From Escherichia phage vB_EcoM_3HA14, in sequence record MN342151.1: a DNA stretch of 64,000 nt; one strand, 5' to 3'. Below, in pieces: positions 49,330 through 62,172 of this stretch; position 1 is the first letter of the stretch, and each line of letters begins with the position of its first letter. The notes beneath the pieces were generated by a model, which saw nothing but the letters and a program-made list of their open reading frames with translations, was not told where the DNA came from and ran no database searches. Made by a program: the position numbers and the translations under genes.

Positions 49330-49337
49330 AACTATAC

Positions 49338-49361
49338 AGCCCCTTAATTGGGGCTTTTATT
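49338..49361 (+). terminator. rho-independent terminator closing the + strand block
   Basis: AGCCCC-TTAATT-GGGGCT followed by TTTATTT. Confidence 0.6.
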
Positions 49362-49364
49362 TAG

Positions 49365-50870
49365 TAAAATTTACGAAATTTATAATTTTTATAAAATTTG
49401 GGATTCACTCCGTTCATCTTGGGTCACCATGATATGTGATAAAATATCTATACCCCTTCTAAACACCCTTTCTAAGCATCATCTCTATATAGTATTATAT
49501 AGTATCTATATAGCCTCTTAGTCCCTAAATAGTGCTCTCTATATAGCCCTCTATAAAGCCTTCTAAGCCTCCCATTAATCAACCCTATACAATCACCTTC
49601 CTAACCTCTTCATAGCCCCTTAGAAGCCCCTATACTCATCTTAATCTCTAGGTAAACGATAGTACCCTATATAGCAGAATCACTAGGTATTACTAAGCCT
49701 CTATATAGACTGTTATATAGCACTAAACAGGTATTCCCTGTAAATGCTTATCCTACAAGGTCTAACACGGTACTAACAAGGTCTCTTATAAGCCTGTTAA
49801 TTCCTGTTTTATATAAGATAGTGTATAGATAGTTATTCAGAATTATAAAATTTTTATAAAATAGACTAGGTAGGTTACTTTTTAGGTTCTTTGGAGAATC
49901 TGAAAAATATCTACAGAGTGTGTATATCTGCTTGGTAGCCCTTAACAGCCCTGTAACATCCCCTTTGCAAAATCTTAAAATATCATTAACAATCTCTTAA
50001 CAACTCTCCCAAGCTCTTAACATCTCTTCAAAGTTCTTAACAGTCTCTTAACAGAACTAACAAGAGCTTAACCATTCTGTAACATTACTAACAAGAGTCT
50101 AACAAGTTGCTTATAAGTTGCTAAATAGTTAAATCTTAAGAGTTATTTTGTTAAGATAATTAACAAGATGCTAACAAGTTCTAAACCTTTTTAACAGTCT
50201 CTTAACATGGTCACTATCTCTTGGTCTATAGTTCCCTTCCTCTTCTTAGTGATTCTCTATAAAGCCCTCTTAAAAGCTCTCTGTAGCTCTGTATAGCCTC
50301 TTCTAAGCTTCTCCCTAGTAACTACACCCCAACTACCTGTATAGCTCTTTATAGGGCTTTCTAGGGGCTTATACAGGGACTTCAAAGAGTCTAACAAGCT
50401 TTTAACATACCACTAACAAGGATTTAACAAGGGGCTAACAAGTCTCTAATAAGCATAACTATGTAGCATTTGTTAAGATTTTGTTAAGAGAATGTAAAGG
50501 GGGCTAACTTTTACGTTACTTTTAAGGTTCTTTTACGTTACTTTGAAGACTCCATAACATACTTTAAAGCTATTATCAAGCCCCTTTGTAACCATTCACA
50601 AGATACTAACGAGATAATAAAGCTTATACCCTTATAAGATTCTTTTAAGGCTCTAGAAAGCTCTATAAAGGGCTTTTAAGAGTAGGTTAATATGATTGCT
50701 TAAGATGAGATGATAAGCCCGTATAGAGCGTTATAGAGCGTTTTAGGGATTGCCCTTCCCTTTCGGGTTATGGGCTTATATTTAAGGGAATTTATAGTTG
50801 ATTTGATAAGAGGATATAGAGTAAGCTATAGAGTTATTGTTCTAAATGTCTGGTAAGATTCTAGGAAGAC
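49365..50870. other. about 1.5 kb ORF-free, repeat-dense non-coding region
   Basis: No ORF of 60 aa or more on either strand. Dense in short reiterated words: CTATATAG palindromes, TAACAAG, CTCTTAACA (about 7 copies in 49980-50060), CTATAAAGCCCTCT; AATTATAAAATTTTTATAAAAT near-palindrome at about 49376 and 49840. Flanked by convergent terminators. Confidence 0.6.
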
Positions 50871-50872
50871 GT

Positions 50873-50897
50873 AAAAAAGCCCCATCTAAGGGGCTGT
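50873..50897 (-). terminator. rho-independent terminator closing the - strand small-gene block
   Basis: On - strand: AGCCCC-TTAGATG-GGGCT followed by TTTTTT. Confidence 0.6.
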
Positions 50898-50936
50898 AAA
50901 GGTGTCTGGGGCTATTTGCCCCGTTGCGGCGACTTG

Positions 50937-51253: not shown

Positions 51254-51517
51254 TTAATTCATTGCTGCATAAGTTGCAAGTCTTTTTTCATTGTATTTTG
51301 TAAGAATCTCACAAGATAAAACGTCATACTTTGCAACGGCTTCAGATTTAGTTAAACCAAAATGGCTTACAATTTCACCATTCATGAATCCGACTACTTC
51401 ATAAGATTCTGCGATGATTTCACCGTTGAACCAATCACTTTCAATACGTTTGCAAAGTTGGATATCTTCTTTGTCAGTACCGATTTGTAACAGGATAGTG
51501 ATTTCTTGATTATTCAT
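51254..51517 (-). CDS. hypothetical small protein (87 aa)
   Basis: ORF directly after leader cassette. Confidence 0.5.
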   Translation of the reverse strand: MNNQEITILLQIGTDKEDIQLCKRIESDWFNGEIIAESYEVVGFMNGEIVSHFGLTKSEAVAKYDVLSCEILTKYNEKRLATYAAMN

Positions 51518-51577
51518 TTTCTAGTCTCCAGTTTAGGATTGTTGGGGAAGGTCATTCCCTCCCCGTTGATAAGTACT

Positions 51578-52105
51578 TTATAGATTTGTGATGATTTCGT
51601 CAAGGGAATTTTCTAAGTTTTTTAAAGATTGTTCGTAAAGCCTAATTCCCCTATTTAATGCTTCCCCTAACGTAATTTTAAAATTAGTTGTTGGGTAGTC
51701 ACTTGTAAAGATGTTTTCCACTTCATAGAGTGGGTATTGTTGGTTACCCGTTCCCATAGCATACATCCCTGTATAATGGATTGCAATAAAAAGATTATGG
51801 GACTTAATAGAGCGCTCATAAGCCATTTTAAAGCGGTTTAACTCGTTTTTAGTTGCCTTAATAGCCATTTCGTGAATTTCTGCGACTATAGCCATATAAT
51901 CATTCAGAATGAGAGAAATAGCCCCCATAAAGTTGTTAGCTGTTACCGCTTTTACATTTGGTCGGTGTACATAAAACTTCTTATCTTCCCCTTTTGTGAT
52001 AACTGCAAAAACTTTGCTCTTTAAGGTAAATTCCCAAGTATCTTTACAAGGCTTGCTCATCACTTCACGGCTACGGATTGCATTAACAGCATTAAACTTA
52101 TTCAT
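51578..52105 (-). CDS. hypothetical protein (175 aa)
   Basis: ORF directly after leader cassette. Confidence 0.5.
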   Translation of the reverse strand: MNKFNAVNAIRSREVMSKPCKDTWEFTLKSKVFAVITKGEDKKFYVHRPNVKAVTANNFMGAISLILNDYMAIVAEIHEMAIKATKNELNRFKMAYERSIKSHNLFIAIHYTGMYAMGTGNQQYPLYEVENIFTSDYPTTNFKITLGEALNRGIRLYEQSLKNLENSLDEIITNL

Positions 52106-52169
52106 TCTAGATTCTCCAGTTTAGGAATTTTGTTTAGTGGGGAAGTTTCCCTCCCCGTTGATGAATACT

Positions 52170-52310
52170 TTACTTGTTTTGATTCTGCATTGCAAGTAGT
52201 TTTTTATCAAAAACTTTATCTGAGATTTCACCAATGATGAGCATTGCTAATGGCAACACAACAGAAACAATCATACCGCAAAGGATAGGGTTTTTAATGA
52301 TATCTAGCAT
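52170..52310 (-). CDS. small membrane protein (46 aa)
   Basis: Not in ORF track. Hydrophobic product MLDIIKNPILCGMIVSVVLPLAMLIIGE...; C-terminus ...LAMQNQNK identical to the end of gene 55622..55969; preceded by a truncated cassette. Confidence 0.35.
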   Translation of the reverse strand: MLDIIKNPILCGMIVSVVLPLAMLIIGEISDKVFDKKLLAMQNQNK

Positions 52311-52506
52311 TTTGTGATTCTCCAGTTTAGGAAGTTGCCTTTTGAAGATACTATATAGATATGATTAGACCTTTGCAAGTACTTTTTACGCTTATCTATA
52401 AAGAATCTATTAAGTTAATCCCTTTTAGATAAACCCCCTCGAACAAAGTTACACTTGTCAAGGGGCATTGTCAATAGTTTTTCAAAAGATTTTTATAAGT
52501 TGTTGA

Positions 52507-52848
52507 TTAGCTTATAAAGATTTTTTCTGGCTTAACATAGGTTAATGACTGTTTTTTAAGCAAATCAGACCAAATGAGCGCGGCAATGTGACTATATCCC
52601 TTTTCTCTTAACTCCTGCATAGCTGATTTGCGAGTTTCGAAACGTGTAGCATAGTATTCAGTGTTAAGGGTAGTTTTATTCCCTTCATTGTCAACATGTA
52701 CAATCTGCATCACTTGAAACGGGCTTACATCTTCTCCCCTGTTCCATTGCTCAAAGTACTTGAGACACTGCATAGGTTTCATTTTGTCGTTAACTTGGGT
52801 AGACCATGACGAATTTTCTTTATCGGTGATAATTGTTACATAGGCCAT
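52507..52848 (-). CDS. hypothetical protein (113 aa)
   Basis: ORF after long-type cassette. Confidence 0.5.
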   Translation of the reverse strand: MAYVTIITDKENSSWSTQVNDKMKPMQCLKYFEQWNRGEDVSPFQVMQIVHVDNEGNKTTLNTEYYATRFETRKSAMQELREKGYSHIAALIWSDLLKKQSLTYVKPEKIFIS

Positions 52849-52933
52849 TTTCAGATTCTCCAGTTTAGGATTGTTGGTAAAGCTCTTTCTCTGGGGCTTA
52901 AGATACTAGCTTTTAAACCCCATGTAAAGCACT

Positions 52934-53131
52934 TTAATAAATTCTATCCATCAAATTATTCACGGCCATAATTGCATTATCTTTGAAGTGTGGATGACTG
53001 CTATTCTGTGAGAATAGTATTTCTCCATTGTATACTATTTTTAGGTCTATCTTTGAACCTTCCATGTTAAGGTTACACTCTACACCTTTTAAACACCACA
53101 AGGTAGAAAGTTTTTGCATCAGTGATAACAT
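52934..53131 (-). CDS. hypothetical small protein (65 aa)
   Basis: ORF after long-type cassette. Confidence 0.45.
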   Translation of the reverse strand: MLSLMQKLSTLWCLKGVECNLNMEGSKIDLKIVYNGEILFSQNSSHPHFKDNAIMAVNNLMDRIY

Positions 53132-53222
53132 TTTAGATTCTCCAGTTTAGGATTGTTGGTAAAGCTCTTTATCTGGGGCTTATCTTATCTAACTATAAAC
53201 CCCATGTAAAGCACTTTATTAG

Positions 53223-53444
53223 TTATTTGTAGTAATAGTATGTAAAATCATTTATCAGGCTTCCAGCCTCATCATTATACTGCTTATGACTAGCCAGATA
53301 ACCGCCATTAGCTAGAATTTCATCAATCAACTTTTTAGCGTCATCGTTGGGAATTCTAACAGGGTTATTAAACGGCTGTAAATAGGTACGACGAACATTT
53401 GAGAATTTAAAATCAATGGTTTTTACGTTAAGAACTTGCAACAT
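53223..53444 (-). CDS. hypothetical small protein (73 aa)
   Basis: ORF-track start at 53522 reads through the cassette in frame; true start taken as the ATG at 53442-53444 that abuts the cassette, as in all other copies. Confidence 0.45.
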   Translation of the reverse strand: MLQVLNVKTIDFKFSNVRRTYLQPFNNPVRIPNDDAKKLIDEILANGGYLASHKQYNDEAGSLINDFTYYYYK

Positions 53445-53522
53445 TTTTTGAATCTCCAGTTTAGGATTGTTGGGATGTTTCCCGTTGATGAATACTTTAC
53501 TTTCTTGCGTTTTCAGTGTCAA

Positions 53523-53753
53523 CTACTTTTCTATAAGAATCTCATATTCACCATTCACACTATCAAAGTAAATACCTTCATCATCTTCTGACTTATAGTA
53601 ACATTGGATATCATCCGATGTTGGGTAGTCTTGCCTTGCTATCTGACAGGCAACAATAGCATTATTTTCGCTACCTGTAAACTCTTCTAAACCTTTAAAG
53701 TCACATTGTGAACCATTGCAGATAGATAAGATAAGATAGATTGTTGTAAGCAT
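53523..53753 (-). CDS. hypothetical small protein (76 aa)
   Basis: ORF without its own cassette; N-terminus MLTTIYLILSICNGSQC is hydrophobic and Cys-containing. Confidence 0.4.
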   Translation of the reverse strand: MLTTIYLILSICNGSQCDFKGLEEFTGSENNAIVACQIARQDYPTSDDIQCYYKSEDDEGIYFDSVNGEYEILIEK

Positions 53754-53770
53754 CTTTTAAGCCTCTTGTA

Positions 53771-53793
53771 AGCCCCTGTGCGGGGCTTTTCTA
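53771..53793 (+). terminator. terminator-like hairpin oriented for the + strand, inside the - strand gene island
   Basis: AGCCCC-TGTGC-GGGGCT followed by TTTTCT on the + strand; no T-tract on the - strand. Confidence 0.35.
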
Positions 53794-53816
53794 GTGAACT
53801 GGCATGATTCTATGGT

Positions 53817-54374
53817 TTATGCTGTTAATTCGTTTATAGCCGTTTCTGCTACGTTACATTGCATTGTGTCAAAGATATCACAATATACATTGCTCATCTC
53901 ATCACTACGTTGGACTATTGCCGCAATGTTGCGTAATTCATCCGGTATATAACCCAAGTTCCTATTATTCAGGTTAGGGACAAAGAAAGGCGCATACATA
54001 GCATTAAATTCAGTTGTGTAAACCTTTTTAATCCATTCTTTATCGAAATATTCTGTAAAGCTTGCTACGTCGCTCATGTTCTCACAGCTCCAGTCATCTT
54101 GTAAATCATCTTCTGGAATATCCAGTTCCAAGATAACAAGCTTTTGTGACTTCATTTGATAGGCTGCTGTAATGCTTGCGCTATCAAGCGCGTTTCTAAT
54201 ACCTTCATCTATGATTTGTTCGTCATCCAGATTTTCTACATCATAGAACTTACTAACAGGGTAGACATAAAAACATCCATCCATATCAGAGCAATTCCAG
54301 ACTCCTGATGGTTTATCACCGCCATTAATAAGGTTTACAAAGTTTTCTTGTGTAGTACCATGAAAGCATTTCAT
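53817..54374 (-). CDS. hypothetical protein (185 aa) with N-terminal H-G-T and G-x-F-Y motifs
   Basis: MKCFHGTT...GCFYVYP pattern is reminiscent of ADP-ribosyltransferase or Tpt1-like folds; speculative. Preceded by long-type cassette. Confidence 0.45.
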   Translation of the reverse strand: MKCFHGTTQENFVNLINGGDKPSGVWNCSDMDGCFYVYPVSKFYDVENLDDEQIIDEGIRNALDSASITAAYQMKSQKLVILELDIPEDDLQDDWSCENMSDVASFTEYFDKEWIKKVYTTEFNAMYAPFFVPNLNNRNLGYIPDELRNIAAIVQRSDEMSNVYCDIFDTMQCNVAETAINELTA

Positions 54375-54458
54375 TTTTGATTCTCCAGTTTAGGATTGTT
54401 GGTAAAGCTCTTTATCTGGGGCTTATCTTAGCTAACTATAAACCCCATGTAAAGGACT

Positions 54459-54707
54459 TTATTTAGTTTTCTTTGTAAAGATTAGTTTAACGGCAACAGT
54501 TGGTAACTCTTCAATACTTGTGAACAAAGTCACTTTTTGAGTCTTGACATTATAGCCATACTTTGAACCATAAGCCGTAAAACGGTTTACAATGTAACTG
54601 TAAGTTTTTGCAGTGTTATCTGGCATATGATATAAAAACGGCTTGCCAAGGTTATCAAGTTGTGTTAAGAGTCGGCAAGTGTCAGGGATATTCAACATAT
54701 TAAACAT
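54459..54707 (-). CDS. hypothetical small protein (82 aa)
   Basis: ORF after short-type cassette. Confidence 0.5.
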   Translation of the reverse strand: MFNMLNIPDTCRLLTQLDNLGKPFLYHMPDNTAKTYSYIVNRFTAYGSKYGYNVKTQKVTLFTSIEELPTVAVKLIFTKKTK

Positions 54708-54792
54708 TTTCAGATTCTCCAGTTTAGGATTGTTGGGGCTTATAACTTGCCCCGTTGATGAGTACTCTACTACTATGCTTTTGCAATGTCAA

Positions 54793-55200
54793 TCAAATCT
54801 CTGAATAAATTGCATCGCAGATTTCACGGAAAACTTCCACCGGTAAGTTACGCTGTAACCATGTTGCAAAGAAATCAGCAATTGCAAAGTTTGCATCAAA
54901 ATCAACACATAGCCACACTTTAACAGCAAATCTAAACATTTTCAAGTCAAGTTCTTTATTCATTACTTTTGACTTTGACAGCATTTCCTTCATCTCATAT
55001 TGAGCACCGTCAATTATAGCTCCTGCTGCTACATCTTGCAAGGATTCTTTAAGCTGTTTTGTGTCTACTACTGCGCCCTGAATTTTACCGATGATATTAT
55101 GTAGTGTTTCGTCTGGTGCTGCTGATGTTACAATGTTGATGCGGTTAATGGTCAAACGTGCTTTCAAAATTGCAACTTCTTTGTGATTAACATTAGTCAT
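54793..55200 (-). CDS. hypothetical protein (135 aa)
   Basis: ORF after long-type cassette. Confidence 0.5.
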   Translation of the reverse strand: MTNVNHKEVAILKARLTINRINIVTSAAPDETLHNIIGKIQGAVVDTKQLKESLQDVAAGAIIDGAQYEMKEMLSKSKVMNKELDLKMFRFAVKVWLCVDFDANFAIADFFATWLQRNLPVEVFREICDAIYSEI

Positions 55201-55289
55201 TTTCTAGTCTCCAGTTTAGGTTAGTTTTAGATAAATCTCTTTATCTGGGGCTATCTTAGCAACTTGATAACCCCATGTAAAGCAATTTA

Positions 55290-55562
55290 TTAGACTAAAT
55301 ACAATTTTTTACCGCTAACAATAATATAACTTACACCACTATTACTATAAACATCTTGATAAATTCTGCGTAACTTTCCAAGGTATCGAACTTTCCAAGA
55401 TGTAGGAATTTTCTTTCCATATCCTGTAGCGGTTTTTTGTAAACCTGCTACTTGCCAATCTAATAGGTGCTGTTCTGCTCTTAACTCTTCAAAGTTTAAT
55501 ACACCGTCTACATAGTGTTTTAAAGTTACGTTCAAAGTGCGACCGTCATTAGTAGTATACAT
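55290..55562 (-). CDS. hypothetical small protein (90 aa)
   Basis: ORF after short-type cassette. Confidence 0.5.
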   Translation of the reverse strand: MYTTNDGRTLNVTLKHYVDGVLNFEELRAEQHLLDWQVAGLQKTATGYGKKIPTSWKVRYLGKLRRIYQDVYSNSGVSYIIVSGKKLYLV

Positions 55563-55621
55563 TTTCAGATTCTCCAGTTTAGGATTGTTGGGGCTTCTAT
55601 CTTGCCCCGTTGATGAATACT

Positions 55622-55969
55622 TTACTTGTTTTGATTCTGCATTGCAAGCTCTTTTTTATTAATTTCTTGTGCTATCACGATATAATAATCTTTTAGGTTT
55701 ATGTCTTGAATTGACTCTAGAAGTATGTCATAATCACTGATTAATTTAAAATCACCGTCTAGAATGTTATCAATCCGGTATGTCTCTGCTTTAAATCGAA
55801 AGCTCATCTCTAAACGTTTCAATTGTTCTAAGCTCAAACGCTCTAAAAAGCCCCGTACAAGATTTATTTTTAAATCCCTTGTAAGTGCCTTATTAGCTAT
55901 ACTGTGCGCTTGCAAAGCTTTATAGAGCGCCACAATAGAGATAAAAATAGCAGTGTATGTGATTAACAT
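55622..55969 (-). CDS. membrane-anchored protein (115 aa)
   Basis: N-terminal TM-like MLITYTAIFISIVALY; C-terminal ...ELAMQNQNK shared with the 46-aa gene at 52170..52310. Confidence 0.45.
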   Translation of the reverse strand: MLITYTAIFISIVALYKALQAHSIANKALTRDLKINLVRGFLERLSLEQLKRLEMSFRFKAETYRIDNILDGDFKLISDYDILLESIQDINLKDYYIVIAQEINKKELAMQNQNK

Positions 55970-56259
55970 TTGTTTTTACCTTTGTGGAATAGTTTACCAG
56001 TGTGACTAATTTCATATGAATCAACCATATCTCTAGTAGTCTTAATAGATGACTTATTAGTGTTATCATATATATCAACCTGAAGCAATGGTTTTTTGTA
56101 TTCTTTGCAAAAGTTCCATACACAAATTATTACTTCTTTTTTGTTAATCTTTCCATGATACCACTCTACGGCTTCAGAAGTACGGCGCATGGATTCAATG
56201 AATTGGATATTGCTTAATAGCTGGCTTAATTTAGTTCTAACGTTTGCGGCAATAAACAT
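55963..56259 (-). CDS. hypothetical protein (98 aa)
   Basis: ORF after long-type cassette. Confidence 0.5.
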   Translation of the reverse strand: MFIAANVRTKLSQLLSNIQFIESMRRTSEAVEWYHGKINKKEVIICVWNFCKEYKKPLLQVDIYDNTNKSSIKTTRDMVDSYEISHTGKLFHKGKNKC

Positions 56260-56343
56260 TTTAGGTTCTCCAGTTTAGGATTGTTTGTAAAGCTCTTTAT
56301 CTGGGGCTATCTTATCAACTTGATAACCCCATGTAAAGCACTT

Positions 56344-56856
56344 TTAGATATTAAAGATATTCATAACAGAATCTTTCAAGGCTTCTAAACGTTCCATTAC
56401 TTCAGATTCTCCATCGGAGTTCGACACTTCCTCTTCTAATCGTGATTCTAAATCTTCCCCGTCAAGATAGCACCAATCGAAGCCATAAGCAAGAGAAAAG
56501 CTATTTAATACTGTATTACCTTCTTTATCTTCTACCTTTGCAAATAGCACGTAGCTGTTAGCCTCTAAATCTCTTTGTAATTCATCTTGTAAGCTCTTGT
56601 AAGCCTCTATAGATGGATTTTCGCGGCCTTGTTTAGCATAATCACTCATCAATTGTGAAAGGCTGTAATGCTGTGGAATTGCATATTTGTACCCGTTACG
56701 CTCTGGATTTTTAAGTTTGATTGTAACCCCGCCTTTGTGCTCATCGGTAAACTTCCAATTCTCCACACAATGGGATGCTTCACAAATATTAACAGCTTCA
56801 TAGATGATAGTGAATTTTTCTTTTTGGACTTCAAAGGTAGCTTCAACAAAATTCAT
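56344..56856 (-). CDS. hypothetical acidic protein (170 aa)
   Basis: ORF after long-type cassette. Confidence 0.5.
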   Translation of the reverse strand: MNFVEATFEVQKEKFTIIYEAVNICEASHCVENWKFTDEHKGGVTIKLKNPERNGYKYAIPQHYSLSQLMSDYAKQGRENPSIEAYKSLQDELQRDLEANSYVLFAKVEDKEGNTVLNSFSLAYGFDWCYLDGEDLESRLEEEVSNSDGESEVMERLEALKDSVMNIFNI

Positions 56857-56947
56857 TTTAGATTCTCCAGTTTAGGACTATTGGTTAGTAAAGCTCTTTA
56901 TCTGGGGCTTATATTATCTAACTATAAACCCCATGTAAAGCACTTTA

Positions 56948-57205
56948 TCAGATTAAATTGTCAGTTAATGATAAGTGCATTTTATAACCTTTCTTCGTGT
57001 AGACGTTAGTTCTACCGATTGCTTTTACACCTTTGAAAAGGTCATAGGAACTACGTTTTAAAGTAATTTCCTTATCACATTTTACGCCCCATCTTACAGC
57101 AGATTCTTTTCCGTTGTCAACCACTTTACCATTTAGTTTTTTAGCAGTTGCGCGAGCGTCATCACGAGATTTTGCAGATACAATGATGTTTTTGATAGTA
57201 GCCAT
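56948..57205 (-). CDS. hypothetical small basic protein (85 aa)
   Basis: ORF after long-type cassette. Confidence 0.5.
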   Translation of the reverse strand: MATIKNIIVSAKSRDDARATAKKLNGKVVDNGKESAVRWGVKCDKEITLKRSSYDLFKGVKAIGRTNVYTKKGYKMHLSLTDNLI

Positions 57206-57296
57206 TTTTGATACTCCAGTTTAGGTTATTGTTTGGTAAAGCTCTTTATCTGGGGCTTATCTTATCTAACTATAAACCCCATGTAAAGGACTTTAT

Positions 57297-57677
57297 TTAG
57301 TTAATTTTGAAAACTGTAACGTAGCCGTCACTACCAATAGTTTGAGATACTCCAGCTTTCTCTACATCATACCCCATTTTATCAAGATGGTACATTGCAT
57401 CTTCATACCCATATTTACCGCCTTGATAGCGTCTTTTTTCACAGCGTATCACAGTTTTACCACGTCCTGCAATAGCATTTATTATAGCTTTTTCACCGGA
57501 TAGTGTACCGTCAAGCATAGTAGCTTTGTAGTGGTTAATACGGTTACCATTAACATCATACTTAAAATTGTAAGCGTGAACAACAATTATTTTTCCTTTG
57601 AAGTTTTCTTTCATAGTTTCCTCTAAGATACTACGAAAGTTTTCTTTGTTGATAAATTTAGGCGCACGATATTTCAT
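57297..57677 (-). CDS. hypothetical protein (126 aa)
   Basis: ORF after long-type cassette. Confidence 0.5.
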   Translation of the reverse strand: MKYRAPKFINKENFRSILEETMKENFKGKIIVVHAYNFKYDVNGNRINHYKATMLDGTLSGEKAIINAIAGRGKTVIRCEKRRYQGGKYGYEDAMYHLDKMGYDVEKAGVSQTIGSDGYVTVFKIN

Positions 57678-57761
57678 TTTAGATTCTCCAGTTTAGGATT
57701 GTTGGTAAAGCTCTTTATCTGGGGCTTAAGATACCAGCTTTTAAACCCCATGTAAAGTACT

Positions 57762-57923
57762 TTATGCAATAATTTTTATAAAATCTTTCATGGTTATTTT
57801 GTCGCTATTTGTAAGGGCTATACAGTCATTACCCATAGCAGACTTATAGAGATAGAAGACTTTACCAATTTTTGGGTATCCGTCTAAATCTTTGTATTGT
57901 ATTAAATCGTTTTCTTTAATCAT
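57762..57923 (-). CDS. hypothetical small protein (53 aa)
   Basis: Not in ORF track. ATG at 57921-57923; product MIKENDLIQYKDLDGYPKIGKVFYLYK...; no cassette of its own. Confidence 0.3.
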   Translation of the reverse strand: MIKENDLIQYKDLDGYPKIGKVFYLYKSAMGNDCIALTNSDKITMKDFIKIIA

Positions 57924-57935
57924 TGTCAAGCCTTT

Positions 57936-58142
57936 TTAAACGTTGTAATAATAAATTGCTGTATGCCTTGTGTAATGCCTTGTGTGAGTTGTCAAATAAC
58001 AATCAGACCTGATTGACGTATCAACATATTCATCAAAATCCTTTTCTGAGATACGTTGCCAAACATCACAAATTAGCATATAGAAACGACGTTTATTTGT
58101 TTTGTTGTTGTCAACAATCATTAACTCACGTTGATATAACAT
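57936..58142 (-). CDS. hypothetical small protein (68 aa)
   Basis: First gene of the island; preceded by short-type cassette at 58143-58200. Confidence 0.45.
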   Translation of the reverse strand: MLYQRELMIVDNNKTNKRRFYMLICDVWQRISEKDFDEYVDTSIRSDCYLTTHTRHYTRHTAIYYYNV

Positions 58143-58393
58143 TTTTAGATTCTCCAGTTTAGGATTGTTGGGATGTTTCCCGTTGATGCAAATACTATAA
58201 GACTGGATTTATGAAGTCAACAAAAATTTTTAAAATATTTTTGATGTTTCGTGAATAGAACGCACGTATGCGGGTACACTAAAACAGAAACCTAGTCAAG
58301 AATTATTTTTGAGTTCTCTACAAATTTCTCTCTTGACTTTTGGGAGGAAGGGGAGTAAGAGGGGATGGTGGGGCTGGTTTCCTACAGCTACCT

Positions 58394-58600
58394 ACCTGCA
58401 CAATTTGAAAATGAATTTTCCCTTTGGAGTCCAACTGCATCTGCACAGATTGAAAATGAAAAAGCTCTTTGGAGTCTAAACCTGCACAAATTTGAAATGA
58501 ATTTTCCCTTTGGAGTTCAGCTAAAGAAATCTGTCCAGAGTTCTATGCAACTATACCTGCACAAATTTAAAATGAAAAAGCCCTCCTTACCTGAGATTTT
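58394..58600. repeat. four direct repeats of about 40-45 bp in intergenic region
   Basis: CCTGCACA(A/G)ATTTGAAAATGAA-(TTTTCCC or AAAAGCTC)-TTTGGAGT at about 58394, 58440, 58481, 58555; two alternating subtypes. ORF 58365..58643 across them is probably not coding. Confidence 0.65.
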
Positions 58601-58623
58601 TAAACTCAAACTTTGGAGGGCTT
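58573..58623 (-). terminator. possible terminator after macro-domain gene (large loop)
   Basis: On - strand: AAGCCCTCC ... GGAGGGCTT 9-bp stem with about 28-nt loop, followed by TTTTTCATTTT. Confidence 0.3.
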
Positions 58624-58647
58624 GTCTATGTCTAGCTAGGTGACTTA

Positions 58648-59499
58648 TTAGTTACGTGCTTCAACATAGCTTACGTTTTCATGTGTGATATAATCTTCTG
58701 CAAACTCTTCTGTAGTCGCATTGATATATACACTTGCATCATCACTAAACGTTACCGCTCTGTGGTGGTGGCCTTGTAACGGGTGGGTAACTTGAGCGTT
58801 ACTTCGATTGTACTTCTCAACCGGAGGGTAACTGGTGTGTACCTTGCCATTACGCTTCACCTTGAGGGTAACTTTATCCTTGCCTACCACAGCAACACCA
58901 TCAAAGTATTGAGGCTCACTGAAGTTCTCCCAACCAGTAACAGGATTAGTCAACTGACTGTACATCTTATCTTCATAGACATACATATAAACGTCAACAT
59001 CCTTCATAGTCTGGTTGATAATGGACAGTACAGCCATGCTATCAAGACCACCAATCCCTGCACCAACCATTGGAAGCCCAACTTTCTTAAGTTGGTTAAC
59101 TTTACAGTAGTTATTAAGACGCTGTAAAGCTGCTTCTAAGGCGTTGTATCGTGCATCTTTGCCAGTGATAACCTGAGTGTAAAGGTTAGCAATTCGACCC
59201 TGCTTAAAACGTGCTACAGAGATGTTACCAAGCATTAGATGCTTAGGGTTATGATTTTCACCACCTACTGTAGCATAAACTTCAGCGTCAGTTTCATAAG
59301 CTTTTGGGTAGCGTTTAGCAATTGTTGCTGCGATACCTGCACCCATCAAGTTCATGCAGTTACAGCCGTGACCAATGATATCAAACTTCTTACCATCAAA
59401 GTCTTTAAAGATATCACCTTTAATAATTTTTACGATACCCATATTAGTAATGCTCCCAACGTTCGTTATCTTCAGATGGTTTAACTCGGTTACCTTCAT
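58648..59499 (-). CDS. macro-domain protein (TARG1/DarG-like ADP-ribose-binding or hydrolase fold) with C-terminal extension
   Basis: GDIF...DIIGHGCNCMNLMGAGIAATIAKRYP and VGLPMVGAGIGGLD match the Gly-rich ADP-ribose-binding loops of macro domains; about 110 aa extra C-terminal region with a His-rich patch. Confidence 0.6.
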   Translation of the reverse strand: MKVTELNHLKITNVGSITNMGIVKIIKGDIFKDFDGKKFDIIGHGCNCMNLMGAGIAATIAKRYPKAYETDAEVYATVGGENHNPKHLMLGNISVARFKQGRIANLYTQVITGKDARYNALEAALQRLNNYCKVNQLKKVGLPMVGAGIGGLDSMAVLSIINQTMKDVDVYMYVYEDKMYSQLTNPVTGWENFSEPQYFDGVAVVGKDKVTLKVKRNGKVHTSYPPVEKYNRSNAQVTHPLQGHHHRAVTFSDDASVYINATTEEFAEDYITHENVSYVEARN

Positions 59500-61476: not shown

Positions 61477-62172
61477 TCAGTTTTTAACAAGCATTGTTTT
61501 GATGTGTGGTAAGATTCTTTCAACCTTCTCCACGTTCTTCACTGTATCTTCTATAAAGCATACTACATCATAGTAAGGTAGAATGCAAGACTGAAGCATA
61601 CGAACTTTCAAACTTTCTGCACTAATCTCATTGTCACCAAATCCACGCATAAACAGTAGGAAATCACTGTCTACATTCTCATTCAGGAAAAGATGTGTGA
61701 CAACTCTTTGTGATTCACCACGAGCGGTTAAGAATCCTATATCAGCATTTCTTGATATACCACACAGAATGTTAAAAACATATGTTGGTTTAGCTCTGCA
61801 AGATTCTACCAAATCAGTATACTGTGAGTAAGTACCATCAGTTAGCAGAGTTGCATTAAGCTCCTTATTAAAGCTTGTAAGAACACCGTCAATGTCTGCT
61901 AAGACCATTTTACGTTTTTCTTCCAAGTTCTTTGCAACCAAGATAAGGCTGTTACGACCAACATATACAGTTTTACCTGTTAGCAAATCCTGACAAGGAA
62001 TCTGTGTCTTTGTTGAGTGGAAGTCTTCAAAGCTACACACAACATATCTTGCTGTATCTGCAAAGTCAGCTTTAGCAATATCTGACCAACTTGCAGAACT
62101 GATATCTAAATCAAGTGGCTTAATATCATAAGCATGACACAGAACCATATCAAATTGTTTTGATTCGCTCAT
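61477..62172 (-). CDS. HAD-family phosphatase-like protein (231 aa), possible 5'-nucleotidase
   Basis: Motif I-like VLADIDGVL (hhhDxDGxL) at residue about 100; later FIEDT resembles motif IV. Confidence 0.4.
   Translation of the reverse strand: MSESKQFDMVLCHAYDIKPLDLDISSASWSDIAKADFADTARYVVCSFEDFHSTKTQIPCQDLLTGKTVYVGRNSLILVAKNLEEKRKMVLADIDGVLTSFNKELNATLLTDGTYSQYTDLVESCRAKPTYVFNILCGISRNADIGFLTARGESQRVVTHLFLNENVDSDFLLFMRGFGDNEISAESLKVRMLQSCILPYYDVVCFIEDTVKNVEKVERILPHIKTMLVKN

Follow-up and report, generated by a model that had tools for sequence, protein, structure and literature searches.

A PHROG 3303 phage protein with a predicted ADP-ribosyltransferase fold and a non-canonical conserved loop

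The gene, its expression signals, and its family

The 64,000-nucleotide stretch of Escherichia phage vB_EcoM_3HA14 analyzed in this study (record MN342151.1; the window) carries on its minus strand a gene for a very acidic 185-residue protein of PHROG 3303, a family of unknown function that is very likely to have the fold of an ADP-ribosyltransferase (ART). The window is DNA of a Felix O1-like phage of the genus Mooglevirus (Ounavirinae). The region shares 97-98% identity with Shigella phages Sf19, Sf13, and Sf14 and 90% with the Citrobacter phage Michonne, likewise a Mooglevirus of the Ounavirinae. The 185-codon open reading frame (ORF) proposed in a first-pass annotation of the window is borne out; it starts with ATG and is a real gene under purifying selection because its ratio of nonsynonymous to synonymous substitution rates (dN/dS) is 0.10-0.16 relative to two orthologs. 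The N-terminal stretch of the protein, MKCFHGTTQENFVNLINGG…GCFYVYP, carries the sequences H5-G6-T7 and G33-C-F-Y36-V-Y-P, two short motifs from which an ART-like fold had been guessed.

The gene had also been described as driven by a cassette, and this is an accurate description. The coding sequence is preceded by TTTACA and TAAGAT elements separated by 17 nt, a 5′ untranslated region (UTR), and a GGAG ribosome-binding site (RBS), and copies of this promoter/5′ UTR module precede no fewer than 11 genes of the minus strand in the interval from 51.5 to 58.2 kb. The -10 element is flanked by a GGGG...CCCC inverted repeat, and the leader of the gene ends in CTAAACTGGAGAATCAAAA-ATG. Judged from its sequence and its recurrence, the element would function as a promoter. 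Throughout the minus-strand block (51500-58200; for example, 54375-54480), the cassette is a module of 80-117 nt with the near-identical leader CAATCCTAAACTGGAGAATC, and other genes use a second leader variant, …GGGGAAG..TCCCTCCCC GTTGA…, that corresponds to repeat families D8-D11.

The protein matches PHROG 3303 with an E value of 2e-94, residues 1-184 aligning with profile positions 1-185 of 186. Homologs were found by tblastn in 375 phage records, where all are labeled "hypothetical protein." These belong to Ounavirinae of Escherichia, Salmonella, Shigella, and Citrobacter, Erwinia Kolesnikvirus, Vibrio phages of ~137 kb, and Pseudomonas Pakpunaviruses, among which the ortholog in PaP1 is gp143. 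An exhaustive profile search gave 404 clusters at 50% identity, nearly all of them stand-alone proteins of 170-200 residues. The family is strongly acidic, with a median isoelectric point (pI) of 4.26 and a median net charge of -21. None of 96 hits in a named database had a name or a Pfam domain, and searches with the 185-residue query against Pfam, NCBIfam, PADLOC, and Protein Data Bank (PDB) sequences gave nothing significant. In two motif-pattern scans covering 185,579 genomes of bacteria and archaea, no cellular homolog turned up; these scans required an exact motif match and leave absence unproven. One family member sits on a 3.19-Mb European Nucleotide Archive (ENA) contig; apart from this member, and within the limits of the scans, the family looks restricted to viruses. 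No description of the family was found in literature on the PHROG identifier, on ARTs of Felix O1/Felixounavirus or Pakpunavirus, or on PaP1 gp143. The anti-aRES family aRad1 was considered as an identity for the protein and rejected, being unrelated and only ~70 residues long. The features of the locus are collected in Table 1.

TABLE 1. Positions and characteristics of features in the window
Feature	Position	Strand	Basis or remarks
Coding sequence of the 185-residue acidic protein (PHROG 3303)	53817..54374	minus	ATG start; N terminus MKCFHGTTQENF
Predicted sigma-70-like early promoter	54425..54453	minus	Consensus scan and recurrence of the module, as repeat families D1-D5, before many minus-strand genes; -35 at 54453-54448, -10 at 54430-54425
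Conserved cassette 5′ UTR (…CAATCCTAAACTGGAGAATCAAAA)	54375..54424	minus	Direct-repeat families D1 and D3, 11-13 copies, every copy ending at a start codon; GGAG at 54386-54383
H5-G6-T7-T8 codons	54351..54362	minus	End of strand β1; putative NAD+-contacting H-G-[ST], from conservation and PARP/Tpt1/DarT alignment
W26 to Y36 codons	54267..54299	minus	W26 and the C28-S29-[DE]30 loop after helix α1; Y36 on β2
D93-D94-W95-S96-C97-E98-N99-M100 codons (signature loop)	54075..54098	minus	Between short strand 92-93 and strand 105-107
Hairpin AAGCCCC-GCACA-GGGGCTT	53770..53788	minus	Just 3′ of the stop codon; repeat D13
76-residue ORF	53523..53753	minus	Immediately downstream of the ART-like gene; lipobox-like N terminus (MLTTIYLILSIC…), several Cys
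99-residue ORF call with TTG start	53223-53522	minus	Cassette leader ends at ATG 53444
Macro-domain gene	58648..59499	minus	283 residues
231-residue ORF	61477-62172	minus	Positional ortholog of Michonne gp088
Four copies of a 43-nt repeat (ACCTGCACAATTTGAAAATGAATTTTCCCTTTGGAGT…)	58394-58597		41-75-nt spacing; between the early block and the macro gene
92-residue ORF	58365-58643	plus	Overlapped by the 43-nt repeats
Repeat-dense stretch	49330-50930		1.6 kb; flanking hairpins at 49332-49358 and 50875-50901

Predicted structure and conserved residues

A template-free AlphaFold2 model based on an alignment of 135 sequences has a predicted local distance difference test (pLDDT) score of 94.8 and a predicted template modeling (pTM) score of 0.90, and all five models have pLDDT values of at least 93.9. 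The split β-sheet that forms the core of the ART fold is present in the predicted model. A fold search with this confident model returned about 50 ART structures consecutively among the hits, with search figures of 7.5 for LT-A, 7.3 for TreX, 7.1 for pertussis toxin S1 (over 105 residues) and TreTu, 7.0 for EcPltA, 6.0 for CC0527/DUF952, 5.9 for mouse Tpt1, 5.8 for PARP15, 5.5 for DarT1 and the DarT of Mycobacterium tuberculosis, 5.4 for Scabin, and 5.2 for Arr; further PARPs, diphtheria toxin homologs, pierisin, RES toxins, and AcrIF11 follow lower in the ranking. An earlier and poorer model, derived from only 12 sequences, gave an identical ranking of the top hits. In a Foldseek search of BFVD, the top match is an uncharacterized siphovirus protein and the best named match is a phage DarT, with an E value of 1.3e-3. 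On the evidence of these models, an ART fold for the PHROG 3303 family is well supported, and more strongly so than by the two motifs on which the initial guess was based.

The ART-fold domain is predicted to comprise approximately residues 1-125 and is followed by a helical C-terminal part (residues 125-185). Assignment of secondary structure by DSSP gives strand β1 (residues 2-8), with H-G-T at its end, helix α1 (9-16), a loop containing W26, C28, and S29, strand β2 (35-39), which includes Y36, a long helix (51-73), strand β3 (77-85), a short helix, strand β4 (92-93), a loop (94-104), strands β5 (105-107) and β6 (115-123), and then the helices of the C-terminal part.

Conservation was counted in the 135-sequence alignment, which consists of diverse homologs with a mean identity to the query of ~30%. 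The H-G-T motif reported in the first-pass annotation is present and constrained: H5 is conserved in 133 sequences, G6 in 130, and T7 in 115, with T or S at position 8. The G-x-F-Y motif reported with it is present in the query, and its Tyr is nearly invariant (Y36, 133/135), but G33 (40/135) and F35 (15/135) are not conserved, and the second motif as defined by conservation is h-Y-h-[WY]. Between these motifs, W26 is found in all 135 sequences, S29 in 129, and C28 in 91, and position 30 is D or E. A third conserved region is the signature loop, in which D94 and S96 are invariant, M100 (132), C97 (123), and N99 (117) are nearly so, position 98 is E or D in 93 sequences, and D93 is present in 77; A104, beyond the loop, is conserved in 114. 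The pattern of conserved polar residues (H5, S29, Y36, D94, S96, C97, and N99), together with W26 and M100, points to an active site.

Y36 is the putative Tyr of an H-Y-x triad, an equivalence suggested by spacing and strand order, since it lies in the strand formed by residues 35-39 and 31 residues after the His; the corresponding spacing is 30-34 in ExoA, Arr, diphtheria toxin, and PARP1. The signature loop D93-M100 would correspond, by strand order in the model, to the ADP-ribosylating turn-turn (ARTT) loop, which in other ARTs is the substrate recognition loop ahead of the catalytic strand.

At the level of sequence, the links to known ART families are weak but convergent on the first strand-helix unit. 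Taken individually, 28 of the 135 members give a subthreshold match to the PARP profile of Pfam (PF00644; best E value 6e-4), and six give one to Tpt1/KptA (PF01885). The best PARP score is 17.8 bits as compared with a gathering cut-off of 26.7, and the matches include only positions 48-76 of the 199 in the profile; calibration with a PARP1 fragment identified position 54 as the His of the NAD site, and the family His falls on this position. The best member score with Tpt1/KptA is 17.2 bits (cut-off 26), and the query itself gives no hit. When the family profile was compared with PDB sequences, the best match was the β1 motif of Runella Tpt1 (the "LFHGTAEKNF" stretch; E value 0.13, with no other region aligned), in which LFHGTAEKNFDLILKDG of the Runella enzyme pairs with "lyHGTtkenlkailkgg" of the family. 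In hhalign, yHGTT..I..G of the family is paired with LYHGTA..I..G of KptA, and one family member matches the β1 motif of Escherichia coli DarT1. Four different ART profiles thus align at one shared H-G-T motif. A weak match of the query to UPF0223/PRK04387 (residues 91-130) was treated as spurious, being specific to the query and found in 2 of the 135 members, and one to the Thoeris inhibitor Tad6 (a single member, E value 0.0055) was rejected as noise. DUF6912 is matched weakly by four members (best E value 6.9e-5) and by the family consensus (E value 0.031), for which it was the only Pfam match; the aligned part, query residues ~53-103, runs through the long helix and β3 into the DDxSC loop. 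DUF6912 may be a related uncharacterized family.

The likeness to H-Y-E enzymes and Tpt1 that had been suggested for the protein holds for the first motif, where the His aligns with PARP position 54, the HGT of Tpt1, and the DarT1 motif, but does not extend to membership in the Tpt1 or PARP families. In common with the PARP/diphtheria toxin (H-Y-E) clade, the phage family has H-G-[ST] on β1 and an aromatic residue on the next core strand at an H-to-Y distance of ~31, whereas it is much smaller than the PARPs and has neither their Y-x10-Y helix motif, nor their Glu, nor their regulatory domains. It shares with Tpt1/KptA the sequence [YF]-H-G-T-x(6)-I-x(2)-G on β1-α1, the strand order of the NAD lobe (as traced on the KptA sequence), and, as judged by strand order, a non-acidic residue where H-Y-E enzymes have their glutamate. 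In contrast to Tpt1, the phage protein lacks the N-terminal RNA lobe and the Arg-His-Arg-Arg tetrad, so that ART strand β1 begins at residue 2; the putative second triad position is Tyr rather than His; the three-residue β4-β5 turn of Tpt1 is replaced by an 11-residue loop containing D94-x-S96-C97-x-N99-M100; a helical extension of 60 residues is added at the C terminus; and the protein is very acidic. DarT (DUF4433) is similarly a His-type ART of the bacterial and phage world, of comparable size and with a like β1-α1 motif, and a DarG-like macro gene is present in the same phage; however, no DarT sequence signature was found in the phage family, which is acidic rather than DNA-binding, is carried by virulent phages instead of toxin-antitoxin loci, and is neither adjacent to nor co-conserved with the macro gene. 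The cholera/LT/pertussis-type toxins, TreTu, and TreX, which include the highest-ranking structural hits, have the R-S-E set (Arg on β1, S-T-S, and E-x-E), whereas β1 of the phage family carries His and S-T-S and E-x-E are not conserved; this likeness is structural only. T4 Alt, ModA, and ModB and AcrIF11 have no sequence relationship to the family, and Alt and Mod use Arg-Ser-Glu. PHROG 3303 appears to represent a separate family within the ART superfamily, outside the PARP, Tpt1, DarT, and R-S-E families.

Neighboring genes and other features of the region

The neighboring genes are syntenic only within the Ounavirinae, and the ART-like gene alone is common to the Ounavirinae, Vibrio, Pseudomonas, and metagenomic phages. 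In every context looked at, it lies within runs of small early genes, and no conserved partner or immunity gene was found across the phage contexts compared. The hairpin that follows its stop codon has no U-run on the minus strand and is followed immediately by AAGAGG, the RBS of the next ORF; it may be a processing or stabilizing element. No separate promoter cassette precedes this next ORF, of 76 codons, which probably shares a transcript with the ART-like gene and adjoins it in Mooglevirus and Felixounavirus. The ORF is not a family-wide partner because its match in an Erwinia Ounavirinae phage is weak and non-adjacent and it has no match in the Vibrio or Pseudomonas phages compared. The product may be a small lipoprotein that acts, for instance, in superinfection exclusion. 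Farther downstream, the TTG-start call of 99 residues is probably too long; from the ATG at the end of the cassette leader, the product would have 73 residues and matches Michonne gp112.

A macro-domain gene about 4 kb away on the same strand had been cited in favor of an ART. The gene is present 4.3 kb upstream, 12 genes away, and its product matches Pfam Macro with an E value of 4.8e-7 (30.2 bits; cut-off 22), but it is not specific support for the assignment. The protein is DarG-like (NCBIfam antitoxin_DarG, E value 2.5e-14; PADLOC DarG, E value 6.4e-15; both far under the full-length cut-offs), and macro homologs are present in 2,664 phage records, some of them from T4-like phages, as compared with 375 for PHROG 3303. 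As a functional partner of the ART-like protein it was rejected, being ubiquitous in phages, DarG-like, and not syntenic outside the Ounavirinae; the distance of 4.3 kb and ~12 genes also differs from the two-gene arrangement of ART and hydrolase in DarTG-like systems. Some relatives of the macro protein are annotated "phosphatase," and no Pfam domain covers the last ~100 residues of its C terminus. By analogy, it may be an orphan "eraser" directed against DarT2, like the NADAR factor AdfN, which counters DarT toxins (PMC11825919), or an ADP-ribose-1''-phosphate phosphatase like Adpp (bioRxiv 10.64898/2026.01.28.702374). One distant family member (locus L002) has a NADAR-like gene 3 kb upstream. 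The macro and NADAR neighbors place the ART-like gene, by position alone, in early surroundings rich in counter-defense functions.

The 231-residue ORF of the same early block is the positional ortholog of a Michonne gene annotated "polynucleotide kinase, HAD-like domain"; it has no Pfam hit at E ≤ 0.01 and is a possible RNA/DNA end-repair gene. The repeat-dense stretch lies at the junction of the plus-strand block and the minus-strand early block, where the GC skew changes sign, and contains no ORF of 60 or more codons, no tRNA, and no Rfam hit. Its short repeats, ~11-12 nt apart, include TAACAAG/CTAACAAG arrays at 50076-50135 and 50379-50460 and CTCTATA[AT]AGCC arrays at 49483-49583 and 50255-50311, and it is flanked by inverted terminator-like hairpins. 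This stretch may serve as an origin or as an iteron-like array to which a protein binds.

Possible activity of the protein

In the explanation that we prefer, to which we give an even chance, the protein is a mono-ADP-ribosyltransferase that is made early, uses NAD+, has an H-Y-(D-loop) site, and acts on a conserved protein of the host in takeover or counter-defense. It would be a stand-alone, very acidic protein with an ART domain of the His-type clade (PARP, diphtheria toxin, DarT, and Tpt1) in residues 1 to ~125. Shortly after infection, host RNA polymerase would begin transcription at the sigma-70-like promoter of the cassette; the product would bind NAD+ through H-G-T on β1 and the Tyr on β2; the invariant D-x-S-C-x-N-M loop most likely would supply the third catalytic element, giving an H-Y-D-like site; and a single ADP-ribose would be transferred to a conserved, probably basic, host protein. 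The modification would redirect host machinery or disable a defense, as T4 Alt/ModA/ModB and AcrIF11 do as phage ARTs (PMC12421852). We infer that the protein binds NAD+ and is catalytic, that D94 has a role in this, that the substrate is a protein, and that the gene is expressed early. Because of the acidity of the protein (pI 4.26, charge -21), a basic protein target, or else an inhibitor or mimic role, is favored over the nucleic acid targets of Tpt1, DarT, pierisin, and Scabin types.

Several observations weigh against this interpretation. In other ARTs the catalytic Glu is at the start of β5, whereas no Glu or Asp is conserved on the corresponding strand of the phage family, where by strand order the position is occupied by A104/S105, small and non-acidic. 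Arr is an H-Y-D enzyme, and D94 is a candidate for a replacement acid of this kind, but it sits in the loop before the expected Glu strand and its catalytic role is a guess from strand order in the model. ART-fold proteins that are inactive as transferases (IcmQ, PARP13, CC0527/DUF952, and CNF domain 4) are also among the structural hits. Every match to an ART family at the sequence level is below the curated threshold and limited to β1-α1, and the hhalign alignment with 26 Tpt1 sequences extends over 20 columns with a probability of 4.9%. Extreme acidity is typical of phage inhibitor and mimic proteins as well.

Some of these observations would be explained if the protein were a non-catalytic pseudo-enzyme that uses an NAD pocket or an acidic surface for binding, either to sequester NAD-derived immune signals or ADP-ribose or to block a defense protein or DNA-binding protein of the host stoichiometrically, as an inhibitor or decoy. 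We regard this as unlikely. The absence of a conserved acid at the canonical β5 position, an acidity like that of many phage inhibitors, and early, counter-defense surroundings with a DarG-like macro gene here and the NADAR-like neighbor of the distant member are all consistent with it. On the other hand, the near-invariance of H5, G6, S29, D94, S96, C97, and N99 at ~25% identity fits an active site better than a surface for binding, and mono-ART PARPs such as PARP10 and PARP15 (H-Y-hydrophobic) are active without the Glu, which is missing from Tpt1 (H-H-hydrophobic) and from the phage family also.

Similarly doubtful, with perhaps one chance in a few, is that the family is a mechanistically new ART branch in which the NAD pocket (H-G-T and Tyr) has been kept and the Glu replaced by the D-x-S-C-x-N-M loop, the product being a counter-defense factor widespread among virulent phages, those of Felixounavirus and Pakpunavirus with their relevance to therapy among them. 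Cys- or Ser-assisted chemistry, a small-molecule or immune-signal substrate, and use of the NAD pocket as a decoy or sponge are possibilities within this reading.

The chances are slim that the protein is a nucleic acid enzyme of Tpt1 or DarT type that removes RNA 2'-phosphates or ADP-ribosylates DNA or RNA ends or bases, in RNA repair or host shut-off. The non-acidic residue that it shares with Tpt1 at the canonical Glu position, the polynucleotide kinase-like gene in the same early block, and the ability of macro enzymes to process Tpt1 by-products fit such a role, and Poa1p-like macro proteins in Pakpunaviruses have been discussed (PMC12846349). However, the RNA lobe of Tpt1 and most of its Arg-His-Arg-Arg tetrad are missing, the alignment with Tpt1 is confined to the 20 columns cited above, a net charge of about -21 fits poorly with nucleic acid binding, and the macro protein of this phage is DarG-like and not Poa1p-like.

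It is equally improbable that the protein works as an NAD+ glycohydrolase, or consumes NAD+ in some other small-molecule reaction, and so shifts the NAD+ pool of the host instead of labeling a macromolecule. The motifs of the NAD site are conserved, many ARTs have NADase activity, and NAD+ reportedly drops during infection by PaP1, which carries the ortholog gp143, despite the presence of NARP1 (an observation cited in PMC12846349); on the other side, Pakpunaviruses rebuild NAD+ through NARP1 (PMC12846349), so a dedicated NADase seems counter-productive. Finally, that the motifs are coincidental and the fold and function unrelated to ARTs would agree with the subthreshold scores of all sequence matches but is very improbable given the consecutive ART structures found with the confident model, the agreement of the 12-sequence model, and the convergence of four ART profiles on one motif.

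In the current picture, much of the conflict between phages and bacteria turns on ADP-ribosylation and the NAD+ pool, as illustrated by DarT/DarG, AdfN, NARP1/2, aRES, Thoeris, and AcrIF11. ARTs of phages as such are already known; what the models add is a previously unannotated family of the superfamily with a conserved loop of non-canonical sequence. Members of the family, in ~400 sequence clusters, are carried by at least 375 sequenced phages, among them genera used in phage therapy (Felixounavirus and Pakpunavirus), and are "hypothetical" everywhere, with no Pfam, NCBIfam, or PADLOC model. Recognition of the predicted ART fold makes an anonymous early gene a candidate for a host-modifying or counter-defense enzyme, and the unusual loop conserved in the family might extend the range of catalysis known for this fold.

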